A DNA stretch of 64,000 nucleotides from Escherichia coli (GTDB lineage: Bacteria; Pseudomonadota; Gammaproteobacteria; Enterobacterales; Enterobacteriaceae): NCBI RefSeq assembly GCF_041886205.1, contig NZ_CP169029.1; one strand, 5' to 3'. This document shows positions 844 to 24,052 of this stretch, in pieces; position 1 is the stretch's first letter; every line of letters starts with the position of its first letter. The notes beneath the pieces were generated by a model that worked only from the letters and a program-made list of their open reading frames with translations, was not told the DNA's origin and did no database searches. Both the position numbers and the translations under genes were made by a program.

Positions 844-1848
844 ATGCAAGATACAGACGTTTACGTATACATAGGCGATGTTCACCGCTCTGGTCATCAC
901 GACATCACCAAAGCGATTAAAGAAAGAAAAACTAACCATGGTTTACAAAAAAATGTTCTTTTTTGCGTCGCTACCTATGGCGGTGATCCCAGCGCAGGAT
1001 ATAGAATTGGCCGCGCTTTGCAACACAACTATGAACACATCACCGTTCTAGTTGTTGGCCCTTGCAAAAGTGCTGGAACCTTGATGGCTGTCGCCGCTCA
1101 TAAGCTCGTGATTGGTGATATGGGTGAGCTTGGTCCTCTAGACATCCAACTTAAGAAAAATGATGAGATCGGCGAATTGAGCTCGGGCCTTGTTATCGCA
1201 ACGGCGATTGATGAAATAAAAGAGTGCGCTATTTCGACCTTTAGATCATACGTACTTGATATAAAGTACAGAAACCAAATTAGCACGAAGATGTCTGCAG
1301 ATATTGCTGCTAAGCTTACTGAAGCAATCATATCGCCGATGGCCTCACAGATAGACCCCATCAAACTCGGGGAGCATCAACGAGCAATGAACATAGCGCT
1401 TTCCTATGGGGAGCGTTTGAATAGTCACTCGAAAAATCTTAAGGAAAGCTCCTTAGGCAAGTTGATCGCTGGATATCCAGCCCATGGTTTTGTGATAGAC
1501 CGTAAAGAGGCGAGGGAACTATTCAACCATGTTGAGAGTCCTACAGACTTTGCAGCCAACCTGTACGAAGTTCTTGGTGAGATGATTTCGTCAGGCGAAA
1601 TCTCTATCTTCGACAAACCGGTGATTAAAGATTTAACTCCTAAAAAACAATATGAAACAACTAACGCAGAGGAAGATTCCCATGACAACAGCAGAATTCA
1701 GGAAGGAGATGAAATCTCTGACCAAAATTCAGGAAGAGCAGAACCGCCAAGGGATGAACCTGTCCAGGGAAGCGATGGAAAACATGCGGAAATTGAAGAA
1801 GAGGCTGGAACCTTACCAGCAGAGCAACCAGATGAAGGCACTCAGTGA
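844..1848 (+). CDS. ClpP/S49-fold serine peptidase-like protein with long acidic C-terminal tail (cargo gene)
   Basis: 334-aa ORF; N-terminal region with GPCKSAGT motif resembling the ClpP nucleophile loop; C-terminus rich in D/E; AT-rich relative to flanks. Confidence 0.45.
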   Translation: MQDTDVYVYIGDVHRSGHHDITKAIKERKTNHGLQKNVLFCVATYGGDPSAGYRIGRALQHNYEHITVLVVGPCKSAGTLMAVAAHKLVIGDMGELGPLDIQLKKNDEIGELSSGLVIATAIDEIKECAISTFRSYVLDIKYRNQISTKMSADIAAKLTEAIISPMASQIDPIKLGEHQRAMNIALSYGERLNSHSKNLKESSLGKLIAGYPAHGFVIDRKEARELFNHVESPTDFAANLYEVLGEMISSGEISIFDKPVIKDLTPKKQYETTNAEEDSHDNSRIQEGDEISDQNSGRAEPPRDEPVQGSDGKHAEIEEEAGTLPAEQPDEGTQ

Positions 1849-2280: not shown

Positions 2281-2844
2281 TTATTTCGTTTGAATGCCAG
2301 TAACAGGAAATCGTTTATATAGGGTTGATAGCCCAACGTTATAGATACGTGCAACATAACGCCGTGATTTCCCTGCCGCTATGAGCGCTCCCATCTGTTG
2401 CCACTGCTCGTCGCTAAACTTCGGTCTACGCCCACCAATCCGGCCTTTGGATCTGGCAATAGCCAAACCAGCTAAAGTTCGCTCGCTATTCAAATCAGAT
2501 TCATACTGCGCAGCAGAAAGAATATTACGGAAATTATAGCGACCACTTGCTGTTTTCAGGTCTACACCATCTGTAATACTCCGAAAATTAACGCCTTTTT
2601 CGTGCAGATTTTGAAACATCAATAGCGCATGTAGCACATTTCTCCCTATCCGATCTAGCTTCCAGACAATCAACTCATCTCCACTTTTCATCACCGAAAT
2701 TAATTCCTTTAACACAGGGCGATTAGCTGTTCTGCCACTGGCATATTCTTCATAAATTCGCTCACAGCCAGCTGACTCAAGTGCAAGACGTTGCAACTCT
2801 GTATCCTGATGATTTGTTGATACACGAACATACCCGTAAATCAT
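2281..2844 (-). CDS. Serine-recombinase DNA invertase (Pin/Gin/Hin family)
   Basis: 187 aa; N-terminus MIYGYVRVSTNHQDTELQ with catalytic-Ser motif; C-terminal HTH; adjacent to inverted crossover sites. Confidence 0.9.
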   Translation of the reverse strand: MIYGYVRVSTNHQDTELQRLALESAGCERIYEEYASGRTANRPVLKELISVMKSGDELIVWKLDRIGRNVLHALLMFQNLHEKGVNFRSITDGVDLKTASGRYNFRNILSAAQYESDLNSERTLAGLAIARSKGRIGGRRPKFSDEQWQQMGALIAAGKSRRYVARIYNVGLSTLYKRFPVTGIQTK

Positions 2845-2903
2845 GAGTGCTTCTCCTGTTGTAAAAACAGGAGAAGAGGCGAAATATCACCTGATTCAGA
2901 AAA

Positions 2904-2929
2904 ATATTTGAAAGGTTGGTTTGGGAGAA
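2904..2929. other. Invertase crossover site A (gix/hix-like 12+2+12)
   Basis: atatttgaaagg-tt-ggtttgggagaa; inverted copy of the site at 4814-4839 (15 nt identical in reverse complement) with matching AA/TT core. Confidence 0.7.
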
Positions 2930-3415
2930 GGCTCAGCGTTACCCGTTGGTGTGCCTGTTCCGTGGCCTTCAGCCACACCACCAACAGGCTGGCTGAAATG
3001 CAACGGTGCACCTTTTTCTGCCGAAGAGTACCCAAAACTGGCAAAGGCTTACCCAAAGTTAAAATTACCGGATTTGCGCGGTGAGTTTATTCGCGGGTGG
3101 GATGATGGGCGAGGTGTTGATTCCGCGAGACTGCTGCTTTCAAGTCAGGCAGCATCTATCCTTGAACATAACCATGAAATGCATGGATGGACAGGGAACC
3201 CACTCATGGCTAGAGATGTTGGTGAATTAGGTACATCATCCGTATTTGCGGTGCAGTTGAGCATTGGCGATGGCGGGTTATTGTATTCGTGGAAGGATGG
3301 GAGTGGAACAACAAATGACAGTAAACGAATGGATAGAACAAATCATGTCAGTTCCGGCGCCGGTGATGGTAGCCCGCGAAACATTGCATTTAACTACATT
3401 GTGAGGGCTGCATAA
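2921..3415 (+). CDS. Alternative tail-fibre C-terminal variable segment (promoterless in current orientation; fused to constant part after inversion)
   Basis: ORF begins inside crossover site A; GLGEGSALPVGVPVPWPSATPPTGWLKCNGAPF tail-fibre C-terminal motifs. Confidence 0.65.
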   Translation: MGEGSALPVGVPVPWPSATPPTGWLKCNGAPFSAEEYPKLAKAYPKLKLPDLRGEFIRGWDDGRGVDSARLLLSSQAASILEHNHEMHGWTGNPLMARDVGELGTSSVFAVQLSIGDGGLLYSWKDGSGTTNDSKRMDRTNHVSSGAGDGSPRNIAFNYIVRAA

Positions 3416-4018
3416 ATGGAACAGGCTATTTTGGGAAAAGACGGTTACGCTTTAAATGATGGGGAAATCATCGTACATAACTATGATGGCGAAACGCGGG
3501 AATATATTTCTACATCAACTGAATATCTCGCTGTCGGAGTCGGTATCCCGGCATGTTCCTGTCTGGATGCACCAGGTACACATAAAGCTGGTTATGCAAT
3601 CTGTCGCTCTGTAGATTTAAATTCATGGGAATATGTGCCAGACCATCGCGGTGAAACGGTCTATAGCACCAAAACAGGAGAATCAAAAGAAATCACCGCT
3701 CCGGGTGATTACCCTGAAAATACAACCACTATCGCCCCATTAACGCCATACGATAAATGGGATGGTGAGAAATGGGTGACCGATACTGAGGCACAGCATA
3801 GCGCCGCAGTAGACGCGGCAGAAGCACAGCGCCAGTCACTGATTGATGCTGCAATGGCTTCCATTAGTCTGATTCAACTGAAATTGCAGGCCGGACGTAA
3901 ACTGACGCAGGCAGAAACAACCAGACTTAACGCTGTGCTGGATTACATTGACGCGGTGACGGCAACAGATACCAGCACCGCGCCGGATGTCATCTGGCCT
4001 GAACTGCCGGAGGCGTAG
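3416..4018 (+). CDS. Tail fibre assembly protein (alternative cassette, Tfa')
   Basis: 200 aa, starts 1 nt after the variable segment; C-terminal ...PDVIWPELPEA typical of Tfa family. Confidence 0.7.
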   Translation: MEQAILGKDGYALNDGEIIVHNYDGETREYISTSTEYLAVGVGIPACSCLDAPGTHKAGYAICRSVDLNSWEYVPDHRGETVYSTKTGESKEITAPGDYPENTTTIAPLTPYDKWDGEKWVTDTEAQHSAAVDAAEAQRQSLIDAAMASISLIQLKLQAGRKLTQAETTRLNAVLDYIDAVTATDTSTAPDVIWPELPEA

Positions 4019-4442
4019 GCCATTCAATATCTGGCGCACTGGAGGTATCAACCAGCTCCAGTGCATCCAGATAATCCAGCCACAAATTATATTGCGCCAG
4101 TTCCTCACCTTTCAGACGACCAATAGCGGCTTTACCGGGCCATTGCTTACTGTTCATGTATTCGTTGGCCTGGTTAATTAGTAGCTGTCTTTCTGATTCA
4201 GTAATTTCAATAAGCTCTTCATGCGTGGGTGGAGGAATATCTGCCCACGCAGGCAGCCCATCATCTCCGGCAATACGGATTTTTCCTTGTGGCGGTTCAG
4301 CCATAAACTCACTGATAATATTTTGATTTACTTCCTTAGCGTCTGATAAATCCCATCCCTCTGATTTATATTTATCAATCATATCCACAGGGAAAAAAGC
4401 ATTATGCCTTGCGCTATAAACATATTCGTTCATATAAATCAC
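3990..4442 (-). CDS. Tail fibre assembly protein (Tfa, active cassette)
   Basis: 150 aa; C-terminal ...PDIEWPTPP; 3' end overlaps convergent tfa' by 29 nt. Confidence 0.75.
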   Translation of the reverse strand: MIYMNEYVYSARHNAFFPVDMIDKYKSEGWDLSDAKEVNQNIISEFMAEPPQGKIRIAGDDGLPAWADIPPPTHEELIEITESERQLLINQANEYMNSKQWPGKAAIGRLKGEELAQYNLWLDYLDALELVDTSSAPDIEWPTPPAVQAR

Positions 4443-4453
4443 CCTGAATAAAA

Positions 4454-5116
4454 TTACTCACCAACAGCCCACCAACTGTAATTCATCGATACCGTGTCGC
4501 TGGTTGATGACGTTCTGTAAGCAGAATTAAAGCCGGTTAACGTTGGGCCTTCTGCAGTCATCACGAACCCTCGCCCAGCGCCTAAAGGCGCACCGCCATC
4601 ACCAGAATGAGTAAGCATGGCGCAGTCCGCTTTTTTGGGGAAAGGGATGCTGAATGTAATTCTCATTGTTTGCGTCGATAATGTCGGCGTAACCGCACCA
4701 CGACCATATTGCAGGATTTTCCCGTTGGGTAATTTCATCCATCCATCACCACTGGCAAAAGAGGCCATGTCCGGTATCTGATTTTCCCCTGTCCCCACAT
4801 CCCGTTTTGCCGCTTCTCCCAAACCAAGGTTTTCGAGAGCCGTTTTCACCGTGCCATCCGATTTGATATCGCCAAACGGATTCTTGCGGCTTAACAGCAG
4901 CGCACGAAGCGCGGTAAGCAGCTGGTCATGCCGCCCCTTCTCCAGGCTGGCACCGGATGCCTCCACCACGCTGCAAAGTTCCTCCTGCAACATGTCAAAG
5001 TAGTCATCATCCAGATCGGTGGCAGGCGTGCCGGTCTGGGGGTTACCACGGGTAAAACCGTTCTTACCCGCGCCGAACTTATCCTTCTGCGCGGTTTTCG
5101 TGTCTATACGATGCAT
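4454..5116 (-). CDS. Tail fibre protein (constant N-terminal part + current variable C-terminus)
   Basis: 220 aa; crossover site B lies in frame inside the gene (encodes [11 protein letters not shown]). Confidence 0.7.
4814..4839. other. Invertase crossover site B (gix/hix-like)
   Basis: ttctcccaaacc-aa-ggttttcgagag, close to recalled gix/hix consensus; inside tail fibre gene. Confidence 0.7.
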
Positions 5117-5119
5117 GAA

Positions 5120-5704
5120 TTACTCCGGATATTTAAAAATTACGTAGGTATGCGACGGGCAGAGTTTGTTAAGCACACACTCGACAACGGTGTCGCCCCA
5201 GATACGCAGTGCGGAATCACAGGGATCGCCACATGTCATCCAGGTGGTGTTGGTGGCGGCTGGCATGTTGACCTGCCAGTAATACCGCCATTCCGGCGCA
5301 TTCACAGCGTCAGTGCAGGCTGATGAGCAGGTGAACGTGCTTTTGTCGTATCGCGTGATGGTAGCGTCTGGTCTGCCCAGGGCAGCAAGCTGTGCAAGAT
5401 AAAAATCCTCGTTGATGCCGCCCGCCAGGTTAACCTTCGCATCCAGCCGTTGCTGACGCTGGCGAAGGGTCTGTGTCCCTGCGGGAATACATTCATCCGG
5501 CAGACCGCACAGACGCTCCCAGCGGTTTATCAGTTCAGTGGTGGTGCGCGGATCCAGCTCCCGCATCAGGGCATCCGCACGCTGATGAACGCGGGTTAAT
5601 GACGGTGCCGCACCGGCAATCGCCGGATCGCTGGCTGACCACGCCGGACCGGGGGGCAACAGTGCCGACAACAGACGGATGTAATCATCGTTTGTCACGT
5701 CCAT
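5120..5704 (-). CDS. Mu gp48-like tail protein (YmfQ/DUF2313-like)
   Basis: 194 aa; position between baseplate J and tail fibre. Confidence 0.55.
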
Positions 5705-6753
5705 GAAATCGTCCCCAGTACCGCCAGTTCATTTTTTGCAATGGAGATATTGTCTGCCGGTGCAAGCAACTGATGGCTGTATTCCCCGTTCGCACCGGAA
5801 ATCGCTTCACTGATACGCGACACCTTCAGTTCTCCCTGCGGATAACCATCACGCAGCAGGAACGAACGCAACTCGGCGGTGATGGCAGCCCGTATTTCTG
5901 GTGTATCCGGCGTCACACGGATATGAAAATCCACCGTATGCGCCACCGGCCTGAACACATACAAATCAGAGCCTGCCACCGGGGCCAGTGGCTCGATATG
6001 CAGCCTTGCCGCCGTTTCCGTTGATTCTTCCGGAATGGGATTAATCAGGTCGCTGCTGGCAATCATCACACCGACAGTCCCCGTTCCCATCCAGTGTCGG
6101 TATGTCCATGCGCGGGTAATGCCGGGAACTTCTTTAGCCCAGACGACATAGTCCCCGTCAGCCCCGCCCTGAGGCGTCCAGTAATACCGCTCAATGACGC
6201 GGGCGCGCCACATTTCCAGCTCTTCAGTATCAAATCCACCTGTCAGTGTATCTGCCACGCCGGAAGACGGCAGACCATTCACCGGCGTGACCAGGATTAA
6301 TGACGTACCGTCGTCAGCGTTACCGACCGCGCCTGCACTTGAGCAGGCGATCGGCACGCGCAGGACACCACCGGAGCTGGTTGCATCGGCAGTTGCCGTG
6401 TACTGCACCAGGTCATCGCGCTGAATAACACTCCCGGCGGTCACCTTCAGGCCATCGCTGACACCTTCCCAGCGCATATACCCGCTGGCAGCCGTGGCCC
6501 CCTTGCGCGGACACCGTTTCATCGCAGCATGTCGCGCCAGCCAGGACTCATCGCACAAGTCAGGCAGCATGTTCATTGCCAGATAATCGATGTACCCGTA
6601 AACCGTATGCAGCGCCGCCGCATACACCTTTGCCCGCACGTCTTCATCCATGCGCCGGAGCGTGTCGCTGACGTCCAGCCTGGCGAATAAATCGTTACGG
6701 AGCATACTGATATTTTCTGCCAGCGTCGGGCGCTGAAATTCACTGTCCGCCAT
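5695..6753 (-). CDS. Baseplate J-like protein (Mu gp47-like)
   Basis: 352 aa; position and size; overlapping start/stop with neighbours. Confidence 0.7.
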
Positions 6754-8792: not shown

Positions 8793-10162
8793 TGCACTGG
8801 CACCTTCAGAGGGATCACCGGCACAAAGCCGGGATGCGTAATGGCATTACGCCGGATAATGTCCGCGTCACGCGCCGCGTTATCAAACCAGGTCGCTGCC
8901 AGCACCAGCGCGGGTAAAACCTCATCCGGTGTGCGCTGAATGATCCGTGCAGACTGTTCAAGGCGCGTGTTGATATCCGCATTCAGATCTGCTTTCACCC
9001 GGCGCAGCGCCAGAAACAGCGCATCACTGGTTGTACGGGACAACTCCTTATCAATTGCCGTATTCAGTGTGTCGCGAATGTCAGTCAGTTCTTCCCACGT
9101 CGGCAGGTCAACCGTGTTTTTCACCGCCGGTGCATTGTTCAGTGCCGGATGCGTGACGGAAGGCCAGCCAGTGCTCTGCGCGGGTGTTGTTGCCTGCCCC
9201 ACTGCGGAATTCTGCATCACCGCGGAAGTTGTTGGCGCAGGCAATCGGGTGACGGCATACGCCGCTTCGCTGATTGCGGTCGTACGAAGGGTGCTGGCAA
9301 CCACGTTACGCTGCTGCGTAGCCGTGGCGGTGGTTTTACTGTCCGTTTTCCAGACGCCGCGCGGTTGCAGATCGCTGCCGAGGCTGACACCGGAAAGCGT
9401 TTTGATCATGGTGACCAGGTCGCTGGCGTTACCATAAAGGCGTTTCCCGGTACGCCACATTTTCTGCACCTGCTCAACGAAATTTTTGCCTGACGATGGC
9501 GGCGGCAGAAGTACCGAGATATCCCCCTGTAACAGCCTGGCGGCATCCGATACGGCAGAATCCACCACTTTCATCGCATCAGAAACATACCCCAGCATTA
9601 TGCTGGCATTACCGATAACGTCGTTCTGCACGAAATCCGCCACACCATCGATACTGAAACCGCTGAAGCTGTCACTGATGCAGTCATCCAGTGCAGAACA
9701 GGATGACATCAGCGTCTGCGCCGTCGCCGCACCTGATGTGGGGTAAGAGAGCTCTCCTGCTTCGACAAACTTCAGGTCAAAGCGGACAATACGTCCTTCA
9801 CTTTTCGATGTGCTGACCCGAACTTCCCCGTCAACACAGACTTTCAGCTCACCGTATGTCGGATGGACAAGCGTGCCGGGACCGGGTTTATTCAGCGCGT
9901 CAATCAGGCGATCGCGCTGGTCAAAACAGTCATCTCCCACCACATAAGCCGTGATGGACGGGCGGAAAGTGATTTTCCCCAGGTCTTCGGTATAGGGTTT
10001 GTCGCGGTTCGGGTATTCATGTGTTTCTACACGGCGACCGGTTCCCGCACTTTCTTCTTCAACCTTAAACGGCACACCTCGAAATGATGCTTCAAGTAGC
10101 TTTTCACGCCAGCCACTTCGAGAATCAGAGGATAGGTACGAAGAAATATGAGAAAAATCCAT
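8789..10162 (-). CDS. DNA circulation protein (Mu gpN-like)
   Basis: 457 aa; N-terminal ...WREKLLEASFRGVPFKVEEE...GRRVETHEYPNRDKPYTEDLG motif recalled from Mu N family. Confidence 0.75.
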   Translation of the reverse strand: MDFSHISSYLSSDSRSGWREKLLEASFRGVPFKVEEESAGTGRRVETHEYPNRDKPYTEDLGKITFRPSITAYVVGDDCFDQRDRLIDALNKPGPGTLVHPTYGELKVCVDGEVRVSTSKSEGRIVRFDLKFVEAGELSYPTSGAATAQTLMSSCSALDDCISDSFSGFSIDGVADFVQNDVIGNASIMLGYVSDAMKVVDSAVSDAARLLQGDISVLLPPPSSGKNFVEQVQKMWRTGKRLYGNASDLVTMIKTLSGVSLGSDLQPRGVWKTDSKTTATATQQRNVVASTLRTTAISEAAYAVTRLPAPTTSAVMQNSAVGQATTPAQSTGWPSVTHPALNNAPAVKNTVDLPTWEELTDIRDTLNTAIDKELSRTTSDALFLALRRVKADLNADINTRLEQSARIIQRTPDEVLPALVLAATWFDNAARDADIIRRNAITHPGFVPVIPLKVPVQ

Positions 10163-13081: not shown

Positions 13082-13434
13082 TGGTAATCCCCTTCTTCAC
13101 CGTGGAACTCAAGATCAACCGTACCTTCTTCGGCATTATGGTTCGCTTCGCCGTGCAGCCAGGCTGACGACAATACATAGACCTGACCGTTCGCCAGCTC
13201 GGCAGTGATGGTCATCTCATCAGACGAGGTGATTTTGCTCACCGGAAAATTCTTCGGCACCTTGAAGGTCCCTTTGACATAAGGCGCACGGTGAGTTTCC
13301 TTGCGGTCCACTGAACCGTCCAGGCCGATGATGTCATCATTGACCGTCCTGTTCATGGGCACCTCAATGCCGCCGGTCAGCGATAGCTGCTGACCGTCAA
13401 TTTTGAAATAACAGGTTCCCCCGATACGGGCCAT
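13078..13434 (-). CDS. Tail tube protein (Mu gpM-like)
   Basis: 118 aa immediately after sheath gene, overlapping stop/start. Confidence 0.7.
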   Translation of the reverse strand: MARIGGTCYFKIDGQQLSLTGGIEVPMNRTVNDDIIGLDGSVDRKETHRAPYVKGTFKVPKNFPVSKITSSDEMTITAELANGQVYVLSSAWLHGEANHNAEEGTVDLEFHGEEGDYQ

Positions 13435-14930
13435 TATGCAGACTCCTCTGAATACTGAAGACGGAACTGGTTAACCACGGCAAAGACACGCAACTGGTTA
13501 ACATAGTCAGGCGGGAACAGCGTGTTCAGGCGGTTCGGATCGCTGGCATCACGCTCCACAACCAGGTACTGCTTAAACAGTTCGTAGTTTTCCACGATCC
13601 CCGCACGCTCAAGCTGACGGTAGGTTGCCAGCAGTTCCCCTTTGATTACCGCCGGAGTGACAATCGCCTGACCGGGACCAAAGCGGGTACCGTCGCTGGC
13701 AAGCTTGTGACGCCCGTACTTACTGGTAATGACGGATTTCAGTTTGCGCAGTACATACGCACTGGTATGCAGCGTCTCGCTGTCGAGGTAGCTGTTATCC
13801 GCAACCCCGTAAGCATTTTTCCTGTACGTGGTGACATCACGCTGAATGCGCAGCACCCCGCTTTCGACATACGCCGTTGCCACGCCATGAGACAGCAGGG
13901 TCTGTTGCTCGGTCATCGTGAACCGTTTCCCCTTCGGCGCAGGCAGCATCCCCACCAGCTCACCGGTCTGCGTGGGACGTGCCGGATCGTTGCGAATAAA
14001 CACAGCTGCGCGGGCGGTACGGCTTGCCGCCAGCTCGTCGGCTGGCGTCTGAGTGTCTTTTTCGTATCCCGCCAGGGTAATGTGCTGCTGGTTAAACTGG
14101 TCACCTGCGGTCACCAGTTCTGACAGCGTGCCGATCTTTGCCGTATACACATGACCATACAGCTGACGCGCATAGCTCCAGCGACCGCTGGTATCGTTCA
14201 TCTCGGTCACCAGCGTGTTAACGGAGGCCGTGTCGTTGAACGGCAGGCCGATATAATCAAACGGCTCATCCGCCATTGCAGCCACCGCGCCGGTGAGAAC
14301 AGGAGCGCCCGTTCCGGCGGTACCCGTCGCCACGGCAATCTGTACGCCCGCTGGCAGCACTTCGCCCCCACCAAAGCCGTAGTAATTGAGGCTGACAGGA
14401 ATTTCATTCCCGCAAAGCCCCTTATGACGCGCGGTCAGTGTGACCACGCCTGCCGAAGATGAGGCCGTAAACGGCAGGGCCGGAACGGCATTAATGGCAT
14501 CCTGGATACTGCTGGCAATCGTCGCGACGTTATCGCCGTTGGTCACCGGTGCCTGCACGCGGGTACGTCCCACATAAACATTCACCGTGCCAGTTTCGGT
14601 TGCCGCCCCGGTCACCGTCAGCGTAACCGTTGCCGCCGCGCCTGTGGCTTCCGGAACGGCAATCACATACAGCTCGCCAAACGGGTCGGTCTGGCGATAA
14701 GCCTCGACCATACGCGCCAGCTGACTTCCCGCACCACAAATCTGGCGTGCATAGTCTGCCGACGGCATCAGCACCAGACTGTTGGCAACAATCTCTGCAC
14801 CGTTATTGGCGTGACCAATCAGCAACGATGCCCCGCTGTCCTGTGCAGTATTCGCCGCCTGGTTATCCATTTCCGCATAAAACAGCGGAACCAGCGTATT
14901 CGACGGAATGGTGTTAAAGCTTATCGTCAT
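13434..14930 (-). CDS. Contractile tail sheath protein (Mu gpL-like)
   Basis: 498 aa; size/synteny. Confidence 0.8.
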   Translation of the reverse strand: MTISFNTIPSNTLVPLFYAEMDNQAANTAQDSGASLLIGHANNGAEIVANSLVLMPSADYARQICGAGSQLARMVEAYRQTDPFGELYVIAVPEATGAAATVTLTVTGAATETGTVNVYVGRTRVQAPVTNGDNVATIASSIQDAINAVPALPFTASSSAGVVTLTARHKGLCGNEIPVSLNYYGFGGGEVLPAGVQIAVATGTAGTGAPVLTGAVAAMADEPFDYIGLPFNDTASVNTLVTEMNDTSGRWSYARQLYGHVYTAKIGTLSELVTAGDQFNQQHITLAGYEKDTQTPADELAASRTARAAVFIRNDPARPTQTGELVGMLPAPKGKRFTMTEQQTLLSHGVATAYVESGVLRIQRDVTTYRKNAYGVADNSYLDSETLHTSAYVLRKLKSVITSKYGRHKLASDGTRFGPGQAIVTPAVIKGELLATYRQLERAGIVENYELFKQYLVVERDASDPNRLNTLFPPDYVNQLRVFAVVNQFRLQYSEESA

Positions 14931-16954: not shown

Positions 16955-18184
16955 TCAACCACCAACGCTACCTTTCCCCACCAGCGCTTTAATGGCAGAG
17001 GTGTCTTCCAGGATACAGTCAAAACGATGGAAGGCCAGAAAACCGGTCTGATCATATTCCGCGTAACGCTCAACCAGACGTTTAAGAATCATGTATCGCA
17101 CACGACGGATAATGAAGCGATCAAAGTCACCACAGAACATGAATTTTTTACCCGCCCCGATATCATCAATTTCCTGATCAATGACATACGGTACATTCAA
17201 CACTGAAGCAGGGGCCACACCAACAATATCCGGCAACCATAAAGGGCGTCCCTGACCGTCTTCCATCTCACTGATCAGTTTCAGCGTATTATCGTTAAAC
17301 GCCAGGCGGAATTTCGGTCCGCGACGATATGCAGGATCAATGCTGTGTTTCAGAGCCAGAATTTCCTGCCACTTCACAGCATTTGCCGCGGCAGTCTGTG
17401 TTGTGCCGGTCACTGATGCTGCCAGCCCTTTGGGTTGTTTAGGCGTACCAGCACCCGTCCCCTGAATCAGATAACGGGCTTCACCACGACCAATACGTTC
17501 AGCAATGCGACGGGCAAGATAAGCTTCCATATCGATCGCGCTGTCCTGCAGCAACTCATTAGACACACGAATTATTTTCGATGTCATTTTGAGCGCCCCA
17601 AGGCTTCCCATACCGAAATCGGTGTCTTCTTCACCGGCTTCTTCATTTTCGCCCAGCAGAACACCAACTTCGGAAGTACCATCAGCTGTTGCCCACTCCA
17701 TAGTGCGACCGTCAGAAGTGGTAAGAATCTGCGCCACACTGGCGATGCCACCGTAGGATTTCATCTTCTCAACAACTTTCGCCAGGAATGTTTCTGGTAC
17801 GGTATATCCACCCTTTTCATCCTGAGCTACGCCCTGGGCACGAAGTTCACGCAACGCCTTTCGTTCTTCTGATGTCAGCTCACTGGCACCGTGACGCATC
17901 CACTTATCAAAAACCTGAGCTCGTTTCTCATCCTGTTGTGGATTGTTTTCCGGATCAAGATTCTGACGCTGCTCTTCCTCATTGCTTTCAATGTACGCCT
18001 GATCCTGACGACGTAGTTCTTCTTCGCGAGCAATTCGTTCATCAAGCGCTTCCAGTTCGGATTTTGCTTTGTTCCACTCAGTGCGCTGCTCTTCCGTCCA
18101 TGCGTTATCACCAATTTTTTCATTCAGGGCGCGCATGTCAGTTGCGATAGTATTACGTTTCTGTTTCAGTTCATGCAGTTTCAT
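16955..18184 (-). CDS. Major capsid protein (HK97 fold) with N-terminal coiled-coil delta/scaffold domain
   Basis: 409 aa; N-terminal charged coiled-coil then capsid body; follows prohead protease. Confidence 0.8.
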   Translation of the reverse strand: MKLHELKQKRNTIATDMRALNEKIGDNAWTEEQRTEWNKAKSELEALDERIAREEELRRQDQAYIESNEEEQRQNLDPENNPQQDEKRAQVFDKWMRHGASELTSEERKALRELRAQGVAQDEKGGYTVPETFLAKVVEKMKSYGGIASVAQILTTSDGRTMEWATADGTSEVGVLLGENEEAGEEDTDFGMGSLGALKMTSKIIRVSNELLQDSAIDMEAYLARRIAERIGRGEARYLIQGTGAGTPKQPKGLAASVTGTTQTAAANAVKWQEILALKHSIDPAYRRGPKFRLAFNDNTLKLISEMEDGQGRPLWLPDIVGVAPASVLNVPYVIDQEIDDIGAGKKFMFCGDFDRFIIRRVRYMILKRLVERYAEYDQTGFLAFHRFDCILEDTSAIKALVGKGSVGG

Positions 18185-18194
18185 GATGTTTCCT

Positions 18195-18812
18195 TTACGC
18201 GTTAAGAAGGGTCAGGACGCGTTCACGCGCCATACGTTGATTAATGGCTTTCTGTAGCGCGCCGCTGTTGCGCGCCTCCTGCCATGCTTTCATGGAGCGA
18301 ACAGCCGAGTCAGCCTCCTGATAGGCAGGATATGTCACAGGACTGACATCCAGCAGACGGGAAAAGCGGGTTATCTCGCGAATAACAACCCCGTCCTCAT
18401 CCTGATACCACTCCTCGCCGTCACGGGCGACACGGAAAGCAAAAGATGACTGGTTAATATCTCCACGTTGCATCGGGGCCAGCACCAGATCACGAATGGT
18501 CTGTGTCTCCGGAGCCTGGATGTCATAGCGCAATCCGCGCTCATCAACTGAAAGATTCAGCGTGCCTGCTGCACTACGCCCAAGAATAAAATTAGGATCG
18601 TGGTTAAACAGTGCGCGTACATCATCACCAAGCACATCGTCAAAAGCGCCGGGCCGGATGATTTCGCGGAATGAACCGAATATCAGCTCAGAACGACAGT
18701 CAAACACCGATCCATAACCGATAATGTGCGCCGGGTTATCGTCATGCCGCTCAGCACGCACCTCACCGCTGTAACAACGGATTTCACGGTCATTCATTGG
18801 TTTTTCCCTCAT
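18195..18812 (-). CDS. Prohead protease (HK97 family)
   Basis: 205 aa between portal and capsid. Confidence 0.75.
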   Translation of the reverse strand: MREKPMNDREIRCYSGEVRAERHDDNPAHIIGYGSVFDCRSELIFGSFREIIRPGAFDDVLGDDVRALFNHDPNFILGRSAAGTLNLSVDERGLRYDIQAPETQTIRDLVLAPMQRGDINQSSFAFRVARDGEEWYQDEDGVVIREITRFSRLLDVSPVTYPAYQEADSAVRSMKAWQEARNSGALQKAINQRMARERVLTLLNA

Positions 18813-20064
18813 CGTTTTTTGGGGGCTTAAAATCTCCTGCCGGGTTAGCAGCGTTCACGCTTACCAGCATCTCATCCAGCCCTTCAACCGGATTCATATC
18901 CTCGAATGCGCGGGCCTCATTACGGCTCATCCATCCATCGGTAATAGCGAAGTGATAGAATTGCGCGCGCTCCTGCGGAGTTCCGCGTAAAAGCCCCGTC
19001 AGATTGAACCTGACGTAATACCCGGCGGCTAACTCAGCGCGGGTAAACAAGCGACGGTTAAGCTCCTGCTCCCAGTTCGTCACCCACGGCATCATCGTGT
19101 AGCGGACAAACTGAATCGCCTGCGCAGAAATATTGGAGAAGGTGGCTTTTTCGAGGTCATTAATCATGTGCGCAGGAATATTGAAAATACCGGCAATCAT
19201 TGAACGGTTCAGTTTCATCATGTCAATGATCTGAGCGTCAACTGGCGACACAGTCAGTGCCTTGTAATCCAGATCGGCTGGCAGCAGCATGGTTTTGTTT
19301 TCCTGGCGGCGTAACGCCTGCGATGCCTTCTGCCACTGATCTTTAAGCCAGCCCCAGCTTTCCTTATTGAGTCCGCTTTTAACGGATACTATCCCCGCCG
19401 GACGGGCATTACCGCTGAAGAAGCTTTCTGTGTACTTCTGACCGCTCATCCCCATGCCTATTGTTTCGGCATGTTGCATAATCGGACTCAGCCCCATCTT
19501 CTGATTATTACCCAGCGCACGGATGTGGATCATATCGTCCGGACTGATCGCAAACGCCCCATATTCGTTGTACAAACCGTAGGTATATCGGCCACCAGTA
19601 TTCATCAGCGTCGTTTCCCACGGCATACAGCAATCCAGGGATATGACTTCACCGCGACGATTACGTTTCACCCAGGTATACCCATTCCCCCAGCCAAGGA
19701 TGTGACGTTGCTTCAGTTCGCGCCATTTGTAGCTGGTTTGCCAGGTATTGGGCTCATCATGAACCAGATAAAACGCCGGATGATCGCGTGCGGGTTCAAC
19801 CTTCCCCTTGTGCCTGCGCATAACATGCAACGGCATCTGGGCAAGGCTGGAAGACAGGACATAGATACAGGAATACACCGCAGCCAGTTTCATCGCAGTC
19901 TCAGGACTGACATAAACGTCTGCCCGGAACAGCCCATCAGTATCAACGGCATCACCGGTTATCGGGGTGGAAGGATTCTCCAGTGATTTACTTCTGAACA
20001 GAGCATCAAGCAGCACGCGTCCCCCTTCTGGCCATAGCCAGTGCGCCCACCAGCAGTAAAGCAC
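18790..20064 (-). CDS. Portal protein
   Basis: 424 aa after terminase large subunit. Confidence 0.8.
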   Translation of the reverse strand: MLYCWWAHWLWPEGGRVLLDALFRSKSLENPSTPITGDAVDTDGLFRADVYVSPETAMKLAAVYSCIYVLSSSLAQMPLHVMRRHKGKVEPARDHPAFYLVHDEPNTWQTSYKWRELKQRHILGWGNGYTWVKRNRRGEVISLDCCMPWETTLMNTGGRYTYGLYNEYGAFAISPDDMIHIRALGNNQKMGLSPIMQHAETIGMGMSGQKYTESFFSGNARPAGIVSVKSGLNKESWGWLKDQWQKASQALRRQENKTMLLPADLDYKALTVSPVDAQIIDMMKLNRSMIAGIFNIPAHMINDLEKATFSNISAQAIQFVRYTMMPWVTNWEQELNRRLFTRAELAAGYYVRFNLTGLLRGTPQERAQFYHFAITDGWMSRNEARAFEDMNPVEGLDEMLVSVNAANPAGDFKPPKNDEGKTNE

Positions 20065-20167
20065 CGGACAAAATCAGAGCCGGAGCCATACCAAACTGCA
20101 GGTAAACCCCGCACGTAAGCAGGCCAAAACCAGCCAGCCCGATAACATCAGCAATTAGTGATTTCAT
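20006..20167 (-). CDS. Small hydrophobic protein (53 aa) overlapping terminase stop and portal start
   Basis: ATGA overlap with terminase stop; [53 protein letters not shown]; below ORF-track length cutoff. Confidence 0.3.
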
Positions 20168-21897
20168 AGAATTAAGAGATCATCGTCCGGATCAAGAGAT
20201 GAGAGGAAATCGTCAGGTTCTTTGAGCATTGCCCGACCGATCGTCATAATCAGTGCAACCGCACCATCGATTTTGTTTTCCGCCTGCTCCTTGACGGGCT
20301 TCACTAAATCATCGTTACCTGGCATGTTTTTGCCGACCACATTACCGATACACCAGGTCATGATGGGATTGCCGTCATGATGAAAGCGTCCCGATTCAAT
20401 CGCTGCTTCCAGCTCTTTCATCGGATCGGACATATTGGCGAAGTTCTGGACGATAGTGACGGGATTCAGATCTTCATCAGCAAGGTCATGTGACAGCCCG
20501 GTCGCCCCGAAGGGGTCGATGGGTGACTCACTGACCGGGCTGATTTTGTTCGCCGCTTTGGCCTCCTCGAGGATGTAGCGATAATCCACCTCTGCACCAT
20601 CGGTAACGGTCAGGACGCCCATTTCCACCCATTTCTGAAAGCGTTCGGCTGTCCGTCTATCTTCATTTTTCTCGACGCTGTACACCGTGTCATACGGTAC
20701 CCAGAAGCGCGGGGCCACACTGTAGTAATGCGTTTTACCGTCAATCTCGCGGGTATAAAGTCGCGCCATGCTGTTCATATCCAGCTTACGCGCCAGGTCA
20801 AAGGCCAGAATGCACGGCTGCCCCTCGAACTGCTCAAGGGTCAGTGATTTATCCTCGCAGCTCTGCCAGCTCACCAGGTTGAAATACGCCGAACGCGCCG
20901 ACACCCAGATATTGAGGTGTTTTGTTTTAAAGACGTTTGCCAGACGGGCGTTATTTTTCGCACGCTGCTGCTGACTTAACAAAAATTCGCGATAAACCGA
21001 CACGCCAATATTTGGATTGGCTTTTTCCAGCACCTGCGGGTCGGTCCAGTCGTCACCTTCATCAACGGTATAGATGATCCCGAACAGTTCATCGTTAGGC
21101 ACCGAGCCGTTGAGCATCTCGATGACTTCCCGCCGCTTGTCGTAGCACGGCCCCTCAATGTTGTACCCGGCGGTGGTGATGGCCCACATCAGTGGCTGAC
21201 GTCGCGCCCCCATCCCTGTAAGCATTGTGGTATAAAGCGCATCGGTGGCGTGCTCGTGATATTCATCAACCACGGCACAGTGGGGTGATGAACCATCACC
21301 GGGATTGCCGATCAGCGGTTCAAACCGCGCGCCATCCTCCGGACGGTTCATGTTTGAGGCGTTAACCTCAATCCCGAACGCTTCCGTCAGCATGGGTGTG
21401 CGTTTACACATCAGTCGCGCCGGGCGAAAGACTTCCCACGCCTGTTTCTCTGTCGTGGCACCGGAATACACTTCCGCGCCAAACTCGTTATCACAGGCAA
21501 AACAATACAGGGCAACACCGGCAGAGATTGCTGATTTGCCGTTCTTACGGGGGATTTCGGTGTACACCTCCCGGAAGCGGCGCAACCGGGTGCCTTTATT
21601 GACCCAGCCAAACGCACAGCAGATCACAAATAGCTGCCACGGCTCCAGCGTGATGGGCATCCGTTTGAATGCCCACTCCCCCTTGGTGTGCGGCAACAGC
21701 TGAATAAATTTCGCAGCCCGTTCAGCCAGGTCCTTATCGAAGCGGTAACGAAACGACTTACTTTTTTCCGCCATCAGGTCATCAAGATGGCGCTGGCAGG
21801 CCTGAATCACAAACTGGCAGGCAACAATCTTTCCGCGCACGACATCCCGGGCATACTGATTGGCAGCATTTACGTTGGGGTAAGATTTCCGGCTCAT
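20164..21897 (-). CDS. Terminase large subunit
   Basis: 577 aa; ATPase/nuclease size, follows small subunit with overlapping stop/start. Confidence 0.85.
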
Positions 21898-22397
21898 GAC
21901 TCGATGATTTTCAGAAACGGGTTAGTGGCTTTCTTCTGCCCCGCCAGGCCAATCAGACGCTGGCGGCTGCTGGGGTCGAGTCCGAGCATTGCCCCCGTGC
22001 TGCTCATCTCGGACTCCTGTTCTTTCTTGGCGGTCAGCTCCGGGTTTTTGACCCTGCCGCCCATTGCACCGGTAATGGTGTTGCCCTGGCTGGCAATATT
22101 TTTCACGGCACGTCGCCAGAACTCATAGGCCACGCACCACCGCTCAAGCACCGCGAGGTCAGTCACGCACAGCAGGCCCTGACCGCAGAGTTCTTTGGTT
22201 GTCAGTTGCCACATGATCGTGGCGAGAGGGAGATCTTCTTCAGCGAACCATTCCGGTGGCTCAACACCTTTGATGGGCGTAAAAACAGGTTCATCTTTAT
22301 TCAGGGCTCGCTTGCCGGGGTTTCCGGCCAGCGCCTTGCGCGCCGTTGGCTTGGGGCGACGCCCGGAACGCCCCGCCGTTCCAGCCATATGCGGCAC
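21894..22397 (-). CDS. Terminase small subunit (P27-like)
   Basis: 167 aa basic N-terminus; precedes large subunit. Confidence 0.7.
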
Positions 22398-22514: not shown

Positions 22515-22865
22515 TCACTTTAACCGTTCACGGGCCGTCTTCGCCTTATGGCAGGGCCAGCACAGACTCTGCAGATTACTGTCGGCATCAGTGCCGCCAT
22601 GCGCTTTAGGGATGATGTGGTCAACGGTTTTCGCCTCGCGCACCACACCAGCACGCAAACACAACTGACACAGGCCTTTGTCACGCTTCAGTACTCGCAC
22701 CCGGATACCGTCCCACTTCGAACCATAACCACGCTGATGGCGGGACTGGCCCGACTTGTATTGCTTCCAGCCCTCGCTTTTGTGGCTTTCGCAGTAGCCT
22801 GACGGGTCAGTCGTGGTATTGCGGCAGCCGCGAACACGGCAGGCTTTTGGGATTCGAGGAGGCAT
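22515..22865 (-). CDS. HNH endonuclease (terminase-associated)
   Basis: 116 aa with CxxC...CxxC and HxxxH motifs (GCRNTT...CESH; CQLC...HIIPKAHGG...CWPCH). Confidence 0.8.
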   Translation of the reverse strand: MPPRIPKACRVRGCRNTTTDPSGYCESHKSEGWKQYKSGQSRHQRGYGSKWDGIRVRVLKRDKGLCQLCLRAGVVREAKTVDHIIPKAHGGTDADSNLQSLCWPCHKAKTARERLK

Positions 22866-23164: not shown

Positions 23165-23441
23165 CCGCAACAGCCACTTTGATATCTTCCTGGGTTCTCT
23201 GTGACTCCAGTGCGATCTGCTGTTTTGCATGTTGATTCGCCTCCTGAATGATGTTCGTTATTGCCATAGTACGCAGAACATTCGCGGTGATAGCCTCAGT
23301 AGAATCAGCTCGCTGTTCCGCAGCGTCAGCACGCTTCTGTTCCTTCAGAAACTTTCCGTGGTAGTGATTAGCTGACCAGACAAGACCACCAGCAATACAA
23401 GCAATAAACGTTAAAATGAGCGCCCAATAACTCATCTTCAT
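23049..23441 (-). CDS. Rz-like i-spanin
   Basis: 130 aa; N-terminal TM helix then coiled-coil; follows endolysin. Confidence 0.7.
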   Translation of the reverse strand: MKMSYWALILTFIACIAGGLVWSANHYHGKFLKEQKRADAAEQRADSTEAITANVLRTMAITNIIQEANQHAKQQIALESQRTQEDIKVAVADDDCASRPVPAAAADRLRKFANGLRERSGGTTASQPDF

Positions 23442-24052
23442 ACCAGCAGCGCCGCCCGCGCCTTGTTGTATCGAACCTTACGATCCTCAATACCGTTCAG
23501 ACCGCCGTTAATGATGCGCGTAACACGATTAATATCAGCACCGTAGACCATGCAGCCTTTAGAGGTGTAGAACCATGCAGCTGAGCGCGCGGCCTGTAGC
23601 TCCTGCTCCAGTTGTTCAGGTGAGGTCACCAGATCTAACTTCAGCGCCGCGCCACAGATGCGATAATTATGAAGGCCAGTGATTTGAATTAATCCTCTAC
23701 CACGATATTTCCAGCCATCACCGGGTGCTTTGTTACCCAGTCGGTTGCTATACACCAGATTGGCAATAGCATCCTGACGAGCTGCATGTCCGGATGTTCT
23801 GCCAAGGGCATCAGCCTGCTGCTGTGTGATCCTCTTTCCGAACGTCGCCACCAGCGCAGATGGTGTGTAGTTAAAATTTTCAACTACGGCGCTAAACCCC
23901 ATCGACTCATGGCCTACCTGAGCGATAAACATTGCCTGATCCGCTGGTGCTGTAATGCCGAATTCCTTCATCGCCGCATCAATGTGCGGAAACCAGCGCG
24001 CAGCCAGCCCGGCGCTAATACCAGCCGCCTTTTGAAATAATTGTTGGTTCAT
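23438..24052 (-). CDS. Endolysin, glycoside hydrolase family 19 (chitinase-like)
   Basis: 204 aa; motifs QVGHESMGF and GRGLIQITG. Confidence 0.8.
   Translation of the reverse strand: MNQQLFQKAAGISAGLAARWFPHIDAAMKEFGITAPADQAMFIAQVGHESMGFSAVVENFNYTPSALVATFGKRITQQQADALGRTSGHAARQDAIANLVYSNRLGNKAPGDGWKYRGRGLIQITGLHNYRICGAALKLDLVTSPEQLEQELQAARSAAWFYTSKGCMVYGADINRVTRIINGGLNGIEDRKVRYNKARAALLV

Follow-up and report, generated by a model that had tools for sequence, protein, structure and literature searches.

Results

A small gene between the terminase and portal genes of an SfV-like prophage

The window, by which we mean the whole 64,000-nucleotide stretch of Escherichia coli DNA that was analysed, carries an open reading frame (ORF) of 53 codons on its minus strand, co-directional with the genes for the large terminase (TerL) and the portal. 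Its neighbourhood is that of a standard HK97-type late operon, and the host element is an SfV-like prophage that combines an HK97-type head with a contractile tail. A first-pass annotation of the same DNA had reported this small ORF together with its translation, and both are found in the sequence exactly as quoted, the strand being an addition of the present analysis. The features of the locus are as follows.

23438–24052 of the window: GH19 ORF
22515–22865, minus strand: HNH endonuclease
21894–22397, minus strand: P27-type small terminase
20164–21897, minus strand: TerL, with ATPase and nuclease domains
20167–20223, minus strand: last 19 TerL codons, a variable tail that is exchanged with the small ORF and the portal type
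20164–20167, minus strand: ATGA overlap of the small-ORF ATG (20167–20165) with the TerL TGA (20166–20164), a termination-reinitiation geometry
20006–20167, minus strand: small ORF, 53 codons plus TGA; phrog_7105 two-transmembrane hairpin, identical to the RefSeq WP_000838376.1-type 'hypothetical protein'
20093–20146, minus strand: predicted transmembrane helix 1, codons 8–25, with invariant Gly13 and Gly20
20030–20086, minus strand: predicted transmembrane helix 2, codons 28–46, with invariant Gly35
20020–20029, minus strand: portal Shine-Dalgarno AGAAGGGGGA, within small-ORF codons Arg47-Arg48-Gly49 and separated by 3 nt from the GTG of the portal downstream
18790–20016, minus strand: portal (PF04860), 408 aa, from the corrected start GTG 20016–20014 (mechanical ORF, 18790–20064)
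18195–18812, minus strand: S78 protease
16955–18184, minus strand: major capsid protein
13434–14930: tail sheath gene

The small ORF has already been catalogued, as a RefSeq hypothetical protein and as PHROG 7105, and is therefore not new as an object. Its peptide is 100% identical to that of Shigella phage SfV, the same sequence occurs in many E. coli prophages, and the 801-bp junction has prophage matches at 99.8–99.9% identity in many E. coli genomes. The public records of this junction are in conflict. PGAP (RefSeq) calls both the small ORF, as WP_000838376.1, and a 408-aa portal from the equivalent of GTG 20016, whereas the 2002 GenBank record of SfV (U82619) has a 424-aa portal from the equivalent of GTG 20064 and leaves the small ORF out of its annotation. 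What we add here is the corrected portal start, a link to YmfR and a strict coupling to the portal module.

As the first-pass annotation had pointed out, the small ORF begins in an ATGA overlap with the terminase stop, and this 4-nt overlap with TerL is kept in 45 of 46 distinct junction haplotypes. No Shine-Dalgarno-like sequence is present upstream of the small-ORF ATG, which suggests that the gene may be expressed at a low level. A scan for promoters and terminators returned sites no commoner than in shuffled sequence, with none flanking the small ORF, and folding of the junction RNA gave no unusual stability (z = -1.0), leaving a structured regulatory element unsupported. Because the small ORF lacks signals of its own and overlaps with both of its neighbours, we regard it as a translationally coupled late-operon gene rather than an autonomously expressed moron.

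Comparative data place the portal start at GTG 20016

GTG 20064 is merely the first start codon in the longest portal ORF, and comparison with relatives indicates that the portal begins at GTG 20016 instead. Read upstream from the 20016 equivalent, the portal frame of these relatives runs into stop codons at varying positions, the closest of them three codons away, and several have an ATG precisely at the 20016 equivalent, followed by the conserved L-L-D-A-L-F-R-S. It is also from here on that the N-termini of the portals align. Relatives also have AGGGGG or AGGAG in the place of the portal Shine-Dalgarno. Based on the stops, the ATG and the strong Shine-Dalgarno, we favour the PGAP annotation over the 2002 SfV record. 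This choice settles the annotation conflict, in that the SfV record and longest-ORF calls add a spurious 16-residue N-terminus to the portal and omit a real gene.

The overlap with the portal that the first-pass annotation described does exist, but the annotated start at 20064 is not upheld: counted from GTG 20016, the overlap is 11 nt (20006–20016), not 59 nt, and an 11-nt overlap is seen in 41 of 43 junction haplotypes. The Arg-Gly richness of the C-terminal tail of the small protein probably reflects in part the portal Shine-Dalgarno that is embedded in its codons.

Conservation and selection

The small ORF is intact in all 81 of the IMG/VR loci that were recovered using it. Its dN/dS is 0.28, compared with 0.92 and 2.6 in the two alternative frames (32 distinct sequences), which shows purifying selection on the peptide sequence. 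Over 73 distinct loci the small ORF has a value of 0.30, TerL one of 0.16 and the portal one of 0.08. We conclude from these comparisons that the small ORF is in all likelihood a genuine late phage gene. The suggestion that it might be an artefact of portal start choice fails on several counts: the ORF is conserved, it is under purifying selection, its position is fixed from Enterobacterales to Vibrio and Ralstonia phages, and the long portal frame is stopped in relatives.

The phrog_7105 HMM (PHROGs v4) matches the small ORF with an E value of 3.2e-22, aligning residues 1–52 with profile positions 1–52 of 52, and it is also matched by the homologues from Ralstonia, Evi and F1055. We found 202 clusters at 90% identity for the family, and a profile search without an index of 1.84 billion representatives gave 248 clusters at 50% identity. 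Among the 150 matches listed of these 248, nearly all are 45–70 aa long, most span nearly the whole profile, and every one that is named is 'hypothetical' or 'uncharacterised'. The named sources of the family are many Enterobacterales genera, together with Ralstonia and Vibrio phages. A Pfam scan of the peptide returned no family at E <= 1, and scans with NCBIfam and with the defence models of PADLOC returned no meaningful family. Our search of the literature on a small membrane protein between terminase and portal, on ymfR and on SfV found no functional study of this family or of the YmfR family described below.

A predicted inner-membrane hairpin

The first-pass annotation had likened the product to a two-helix membrane peptide, and modelling bears this out. 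AlphaFold2, run on a 43-sequence alignment, predicts a helical hairpin with helices at residues 2–25 and 27–48 (mean pLDDT 83). Across the 43 family members, the two hydrophobic segments of about 18 residues each contain a mean of 0.02 K+R and zero D/E per segment, charge is almost absent from the loop (consensus YLQFG), and the C-terminal tail has an average of +2.5 K/R. In 43 of 43 sequences the residue at position 7, just upstream of helix 1, is acidic, and Gly13 and Gly20, seven residues apart, lie on the same face of helix 1. Based on this charge pattern and the positive-inside rule, the small protein is predicted to span the inner membrane as an N-in/C-in hairpin, its short YLQFG turn facing the periplasm and its basic tail the cytoplasm. 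Almost nothing of the predicted hairpin would lie outside the bilayer, the cytoplasmic parts amounting to about 7 residues at each end. A Foldseek search of the AlphaFold2 hairpin against the PDB returned nothing at E <= 0.001, as expected for a hairpin of 53 residues. With conservation, selection and predicted structure in agreement, we consider it very probable that the small ORF is a real membrane-protein gene and that it is translated.

The small ORF travels with the portal gene

Among loci recovered with TerL, a single TerL body (residues 1–566, 97–99% identical) is joined to three alternative downstream modules. In the first, it is followed by the small ORF and a portal of type A; in the second, by a YmfR-type hairpin of 58–63 aa and a portal of type B (28% identical); in the third there is no small ORF, and the ATG of a type C portal overlaps the TerL stop. 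The A/B breakpoint falls just after the TerL residues ...GRAML, upstream of which the sequences are 98.7% identical and downstream of which they are unrelated, so that the last 19 TerL residues, the small ORF and the portal are swapped as one block. In Klebsiella phages, vB_EcoS-733R5 and Evi, TerL is about 37% identical, while the portal is 83–86% and the small ORF 55–64% identical.

The small ORF lies directly upstream of the PF04860 portal in the window, in the named phages compared and in each of the eight distant family members that were checked. This adjacency persists where other genes part the small ORF from TerL (loci L169, L174 and L183), as well as in loci that have an S49 instead of an S78 protease. 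This head module is partnered by a contractile tail here but by a siphovirus tail in vB_EcoS-733R5. Roughly 77 records of the phage database have a portal at least 56% identical, and about as many, roughly 72, carry the small ORF. The pattern of gene neighbourhoods thus indicates that the small ORF is linked to the portal module and not to the TerL body or the tail. A packaging-associated membrane protein, as put forward in the first-pass annotation, is a possible reading of the gene.

In lambda, the C-terminal tail of TerL is the part that binds the portal. As the small ORF lies between a co-adapted TerL tail and portal, its co-inheritance with them is by itself no proof of interaction with the portal. 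The presence of the small ORF also does not track conservation of the first 35 portal residues, gut phage NatCom_3357 keeping this N-terminus while having no small ORF.

The gene is absent from type C portal loci, from Klebsiella phage KLB24, Serratia phage Bonzee and NatCom_3357, and from HK97, in all of which TerL runs straight to the portal; HK97 assembles its proheads without such a gene. Because many HK97-type phages do without it, its role should be accessory rather than universal, and whatever this role may be, the hairpin is an accessory of particular portal lineages.

A probable relative of YmfR

In the cryptic prophage e14 of E. coli K-12, ymfR (b1150, IPR020297) is flanked by remnants of the TerL gene (aaaE) and of the portal gene (beeE). 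YmfR matches phrog_502 ('membrane protein') with an E value of 2.5e-28, and proteins of its type are present in phiP27, ST64B (Sb3), SfI, SfII, SfIV and PY54. Like the small protein, YmfR is a two-transmembrane hairpin whose gene is placed after TerL and before a PF04860 portal, and both proteins have the motif G-x2-G-x6-G in their first helix and a glycine in their second. The two types differ in several respects. YmfR-type proteins are 58–63 aa long with a longer, non-basic, Gly-rich tail (...SVGGGK or ...TGGD), whereas the small protein has 53 aa and ends in RRGTRAA; YmfR lacks the conserved acidic residue at position 7; ymfR has its own Shine-Dalgarno, unlike the small ORF; and the partner portal of YmfR is only 28% identical to that of the small ORF.

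Profile comparisons connect the two families tentatively. The small ORF matches phrog_502 with an E value of 5.7e-6 and YmfR matches phrog_7105 with an E value of 0.022, both figures being weakened by transmembrane composition bias, and hhalign aligns the families end to end with their glycines in register (probability 44%, E 2.3e-4), where the same bias weakens the figures. In Vibrio phage K231, a 67-aa hairpin in the TerL/portal slot matches both families (3e-5 and 2e-4) and looks, by these matches, like an intermediate between phrog_7105 and the YmfR type. We propose that the two probably belong to a common superfamily. In phage genomes, YmfR-type proteins are annotated as 'putative integral membrane protein' or, by some automated pipelines, as 'head-tail joining protein W', the latter most likely being a positional misannotation. 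For ymfR, the literature reports no more than its induction along with the remainder of e14 and a single non-specific screen by overexpression.

Comparison with other small phage proteins

The small ORF shares with the gene for lambda gpW its small size and its place, with the large terminase on one side and the portal on the other. gpW, however, is a soluble head-completion protein, whereas the small protein is a predicted hydrophobic hairpin with two uncharged 18-residue segments and no Pfam match. Class II holins and pinholins (e.g. S21 68) resemble it in being small two-transmembrane phage proteins with small-residue helix faces. The small protein matches no holin HMM in Pfam, and its PHROG matches are not lysis families. 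It also differs from holins in its setting, as it lies not beside the endolysin but between TerL and the portal, and its presumably weak, coupled translation speaks against bulk pore formation. A related prophage in ETEC H10407 has two holin-family genes, a GH19 endolysin and an Rz1-like lysC upstream of its HNH/terminase genes. Morons and superinfection-exclusion proteins of the HK97 gp15 and T4 Imm type are a further comparison, from which the small ORF differs in lacking its own promoter and terminator and in overlapping both neighbours. A possible small gene (DUF1056) of Lactococcus phage r1t was considered as a Gram-positive parallel and rejected, as the r1t gene order did not match.

Discussion

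A proposed portal-linked role at the inner membrane

Based on the portal linkage, the hairpin design and the precedent of T4, we tentatively favour a reading in which the small protein is a putative portal-linked membrane accessory factor, acting as a tether or an assembly helper. Ribosomes that terminate on TerL would start the small ORF through the coupled ATGA, and its last codons contain the ribosome-binding site and GTG of the portal. The resulting hairpin would act together with the portal at the cytoplasmic membrane. By keeping newly made portal at the inner membrane, it would bring the initiation of the prohead, or the packaging vertex, to that site. In function this would be comparable to the gp40-dependent, membrane-bound portal initiator of T4. 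There, the membrane-bound gp20 portal initiator depends on the phage-encoded gp40 (PMC9958956). The analogy to the small ORF is a functional one only, with no sequence relationship detected. The gp40 and portal genes are presumably not adjacent in T4. HK97-type phages are not known to have a membrane step.

Several observations weigh against such a tether. The small ORF may merely hitch-hike with the portal, since it is enclosed by the TerL tail on one side and the portal on the other, and HK97 builds proheads without the gene. The roughly 7 cytoplasmic residues at each end offer little surface to bind a portal. The lack of a Shine-Dalgarno, with the low expression that it suggests, is a further point on this side.

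Alternative explanations

The small protein may instead be a late membrane effector unrelated to the portal, which would act on a host inner-membrane protein, lysis timing, the membrane potential or DNA entry and would hitch-hike in a slot protected from recombination. We consider this explanation about as likely as the portal-linked one. Many small two-transmembrane phage proteins, such as T4 Imm and the pinholins, are membrane effectors. The category that PHROGs assigns to its relative phrog_502 is 'moron, auxiliary metabolic gene and host takeover', many lineages do without the gene, and the invariant Gly13, Gly20 and Gly35 faces would suit packing in oligomers or with host transmembrane helices. 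The case for hitch-hiking comes from the GRAML breakpoint, at which the TerL tail, small ORF and portal are exchanged as a block. Against an effector stand the promoter and terminator scans, which gave no signal above chance, so that the gene is no classical moron, and the lack of any match to holin Pfam families or PADLOC defence models. A lysis function is further disfavoured by the complete lysis cassette that the related ETEC H10407 prophage has elsewhere, and an exclusion protein directed against the phage's own kind would be expected to co-vary with tail type, which the small ORF does not. Finally, the small ORF stays fused to the portal start even when it is apart from TerL.

It is unlikely that the small ORF serves mainly as a translational coupling device, in which reinitiation carries ribosomes from TerL to the portal and sets their ratio while the peptide matters little. 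The geometry would suit such a device well: an ATGA overlap with no Shine-Dalgarno upstream of it, a portal Shine-Dalgarno and GTG inside the small ORF, and a very strong conservation of both overlaps. The peptide itself argues otherwise, since its amino acids are under purifying selection, Gly13, Gly20 and Gly35 never vary, position 7 is acidic in all 43 sequences, and the two-transmembrane design is kept in families that have diverged almost beyond recognition. Furthermore, no unusually stable RNA sequesters the portal ribosome-binding site (z = -1.0), and in HK97 and the type C loci TerL is coupled straight to the portal with no small ORF in between.

We also think it rather improbable that the hairpin is a minor component of the virion or prohead, perhaps on the portal channel, that is later released into the host membrane. 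P22 and T7 are known to eject hydrophobic proteins, and the linkage to the head/portal module whatever the tail type would fit a particle component. In long-tailed phages, however, passage through the membrane is generally the task of the tape-measure protein, the distribution of charges is in keeping with a protein that resides in the inner membrane, and we found no virion proteomics data.

Very improbable, lastly, is that the small ORF is not a gene, the portal starting at GTG 20064 as in the longest ORF and in SfV record U82619, or that a programmed frameshift yields a membrane-anchored portal isoform, for which the portal frame is +1 relative to the small ORF beside an AGGGGG run that resembles the prfB frameshift site: in relatives, stops interrupt the portal frame on the way from the 20064 to the 20016 equivalent, several have an ATG exactly at the latter, and selection over that stretch acts on the small-ORF frame and not on the portal frame. 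A conserved +1 frameshift fusion was set aside as unlikely, as the frame of the portal relative to the small ORF varies, being -1 in Ralstonia phages with an ATGA overlap.

Implications

The portal-linked reading can be extended, speculatively and with considerable doubt, to a large clade of HK97-type phages of Proteobacteria, in which a putative portal-coupled hairpin of the phrog_7105 or YmfR type would tie the assembly of the portal, the initiation of the prohead or the packaging vertex to the inner membrane. In this extended reading, the invariant glycine faces could allow a ring that matches the portal oligomer. If this were true, membrane-initiated head assembly, so far a peculiarity of T4, would extend to simple temperate phages. 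Should the hairpin be needed for head assembly or packaging, HK97-type morphogenesis would include a membrane step; should it not be needed, the hairpin would be another dispensable small membrane protein of phages. In either case, a very widespread and entirely uncharacterised family of small membrane proteins is firmly attached to the portal gene in numerous temperate phages that infect Enterobacterales, Vibrio and Ralstonia, and a probable relative of it, YmfR, resides in E. coli K-12 itself.

The TerL tail and the portal type

At the sequence level, the 19 C-terminal residues of TerL, the large terminase subunit, are a swappable cassette.

20167-20223, minus strand: last 19 residues of TerL (L089 and L097 compared, around locus position 4150)

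When the modules of loci L089 and L097 are compared, the upstream part of TerL is 98.7% identical at the DNA level, and identity collapses immediately past the motif GRAML. The window has its own version of the tail; a second version, YEKEDTLSDHIESYGIRSL, is paired with the e14/phiP27-type portal, and another, PETRQSLKGFFENPIMVGF, is paired with a third portal type. This abrupt loss of identity, together with a tail version that follows portal type, fits a role for the TerL tail as a portal-docking element that would co-evolve with the portal.

YmfR in e14 and the annotation of hairpin genes

YmfR, the hairpin protein probably related to the product of the small ORF, is encoded in the TerL-portal slot of the cryptic prophage e14.

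L088 (E. coli K-12 e14), 9550-9732: ymfR, intact

Both of its neighbours, the terminase gene aaaE and the portal gene beeE, are truncated in e14; ymfR itself is not. Induction of ymfR alongside other e14 genes has been described in one transcriptome study (PMC10012262).

The small ORF is absent from the reference annotation of phage SfV (U82619.2), in which the portal carries a 16-residue N-terminal extension that stems from the choice of the longest-ORF start. This record appears to need re-annotation.

SfV U82619.2 (L187), 2289-2450: small-ORF region
SfV U82619.2 (L187), 2392-3666: portal

In some automated phage annotations (e.g. ON470603.1, ON470584.1 and PQ793804.1) the YmfR-type hydrophobic hairpin goes by the name 'head-tail joining protein W'. 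This label was probably assigned wrongly, on the strength of gene position and the analogy with lambda W.

Accessory genes and the prophage end

Streptococcus phage Javan255 is one of the phages compared.

Javan255 (L178), 1-2113: terL region

Here 'terminase large subunit' is annotated on two CDSs (1-896 and 1583-1753), which flank one hypothetical gene and one toxin gene, and the gap ahead of the portal holds two more ORFs of 97 and 114 aa. The arrangement looks like a cargo insertion within or beside terL. Phage vB_EcoS-733R5 (L182), which has its head module in common with the window prophage, carries an annotated retron-type reverse transcriptase (4333-5817) in its accessory region.

844-1848, plus strand: 334-aa ORF near the prophage end

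This ORF gave only a weak match to ClpP-like SDH-proteases, which at 27 bits stayed below the cut-off of 31.3, and no integrase match. The integrase of the relative in ETEC H10407 is located near the corresponding prophage end.

Loci without a hairpin gene

In five loci (L147, L153, L154, L156 and L163) the third portal type, beginning MNKNKQPG..., directly follows a TerL that is ~82% identical to that of the window, with no small ORF between.

L147, L153, L154, L156 and L163, about 4225-4260: TerL/portal junction, TGATG overlap

These loci are natural 'no hairpin' comparators.
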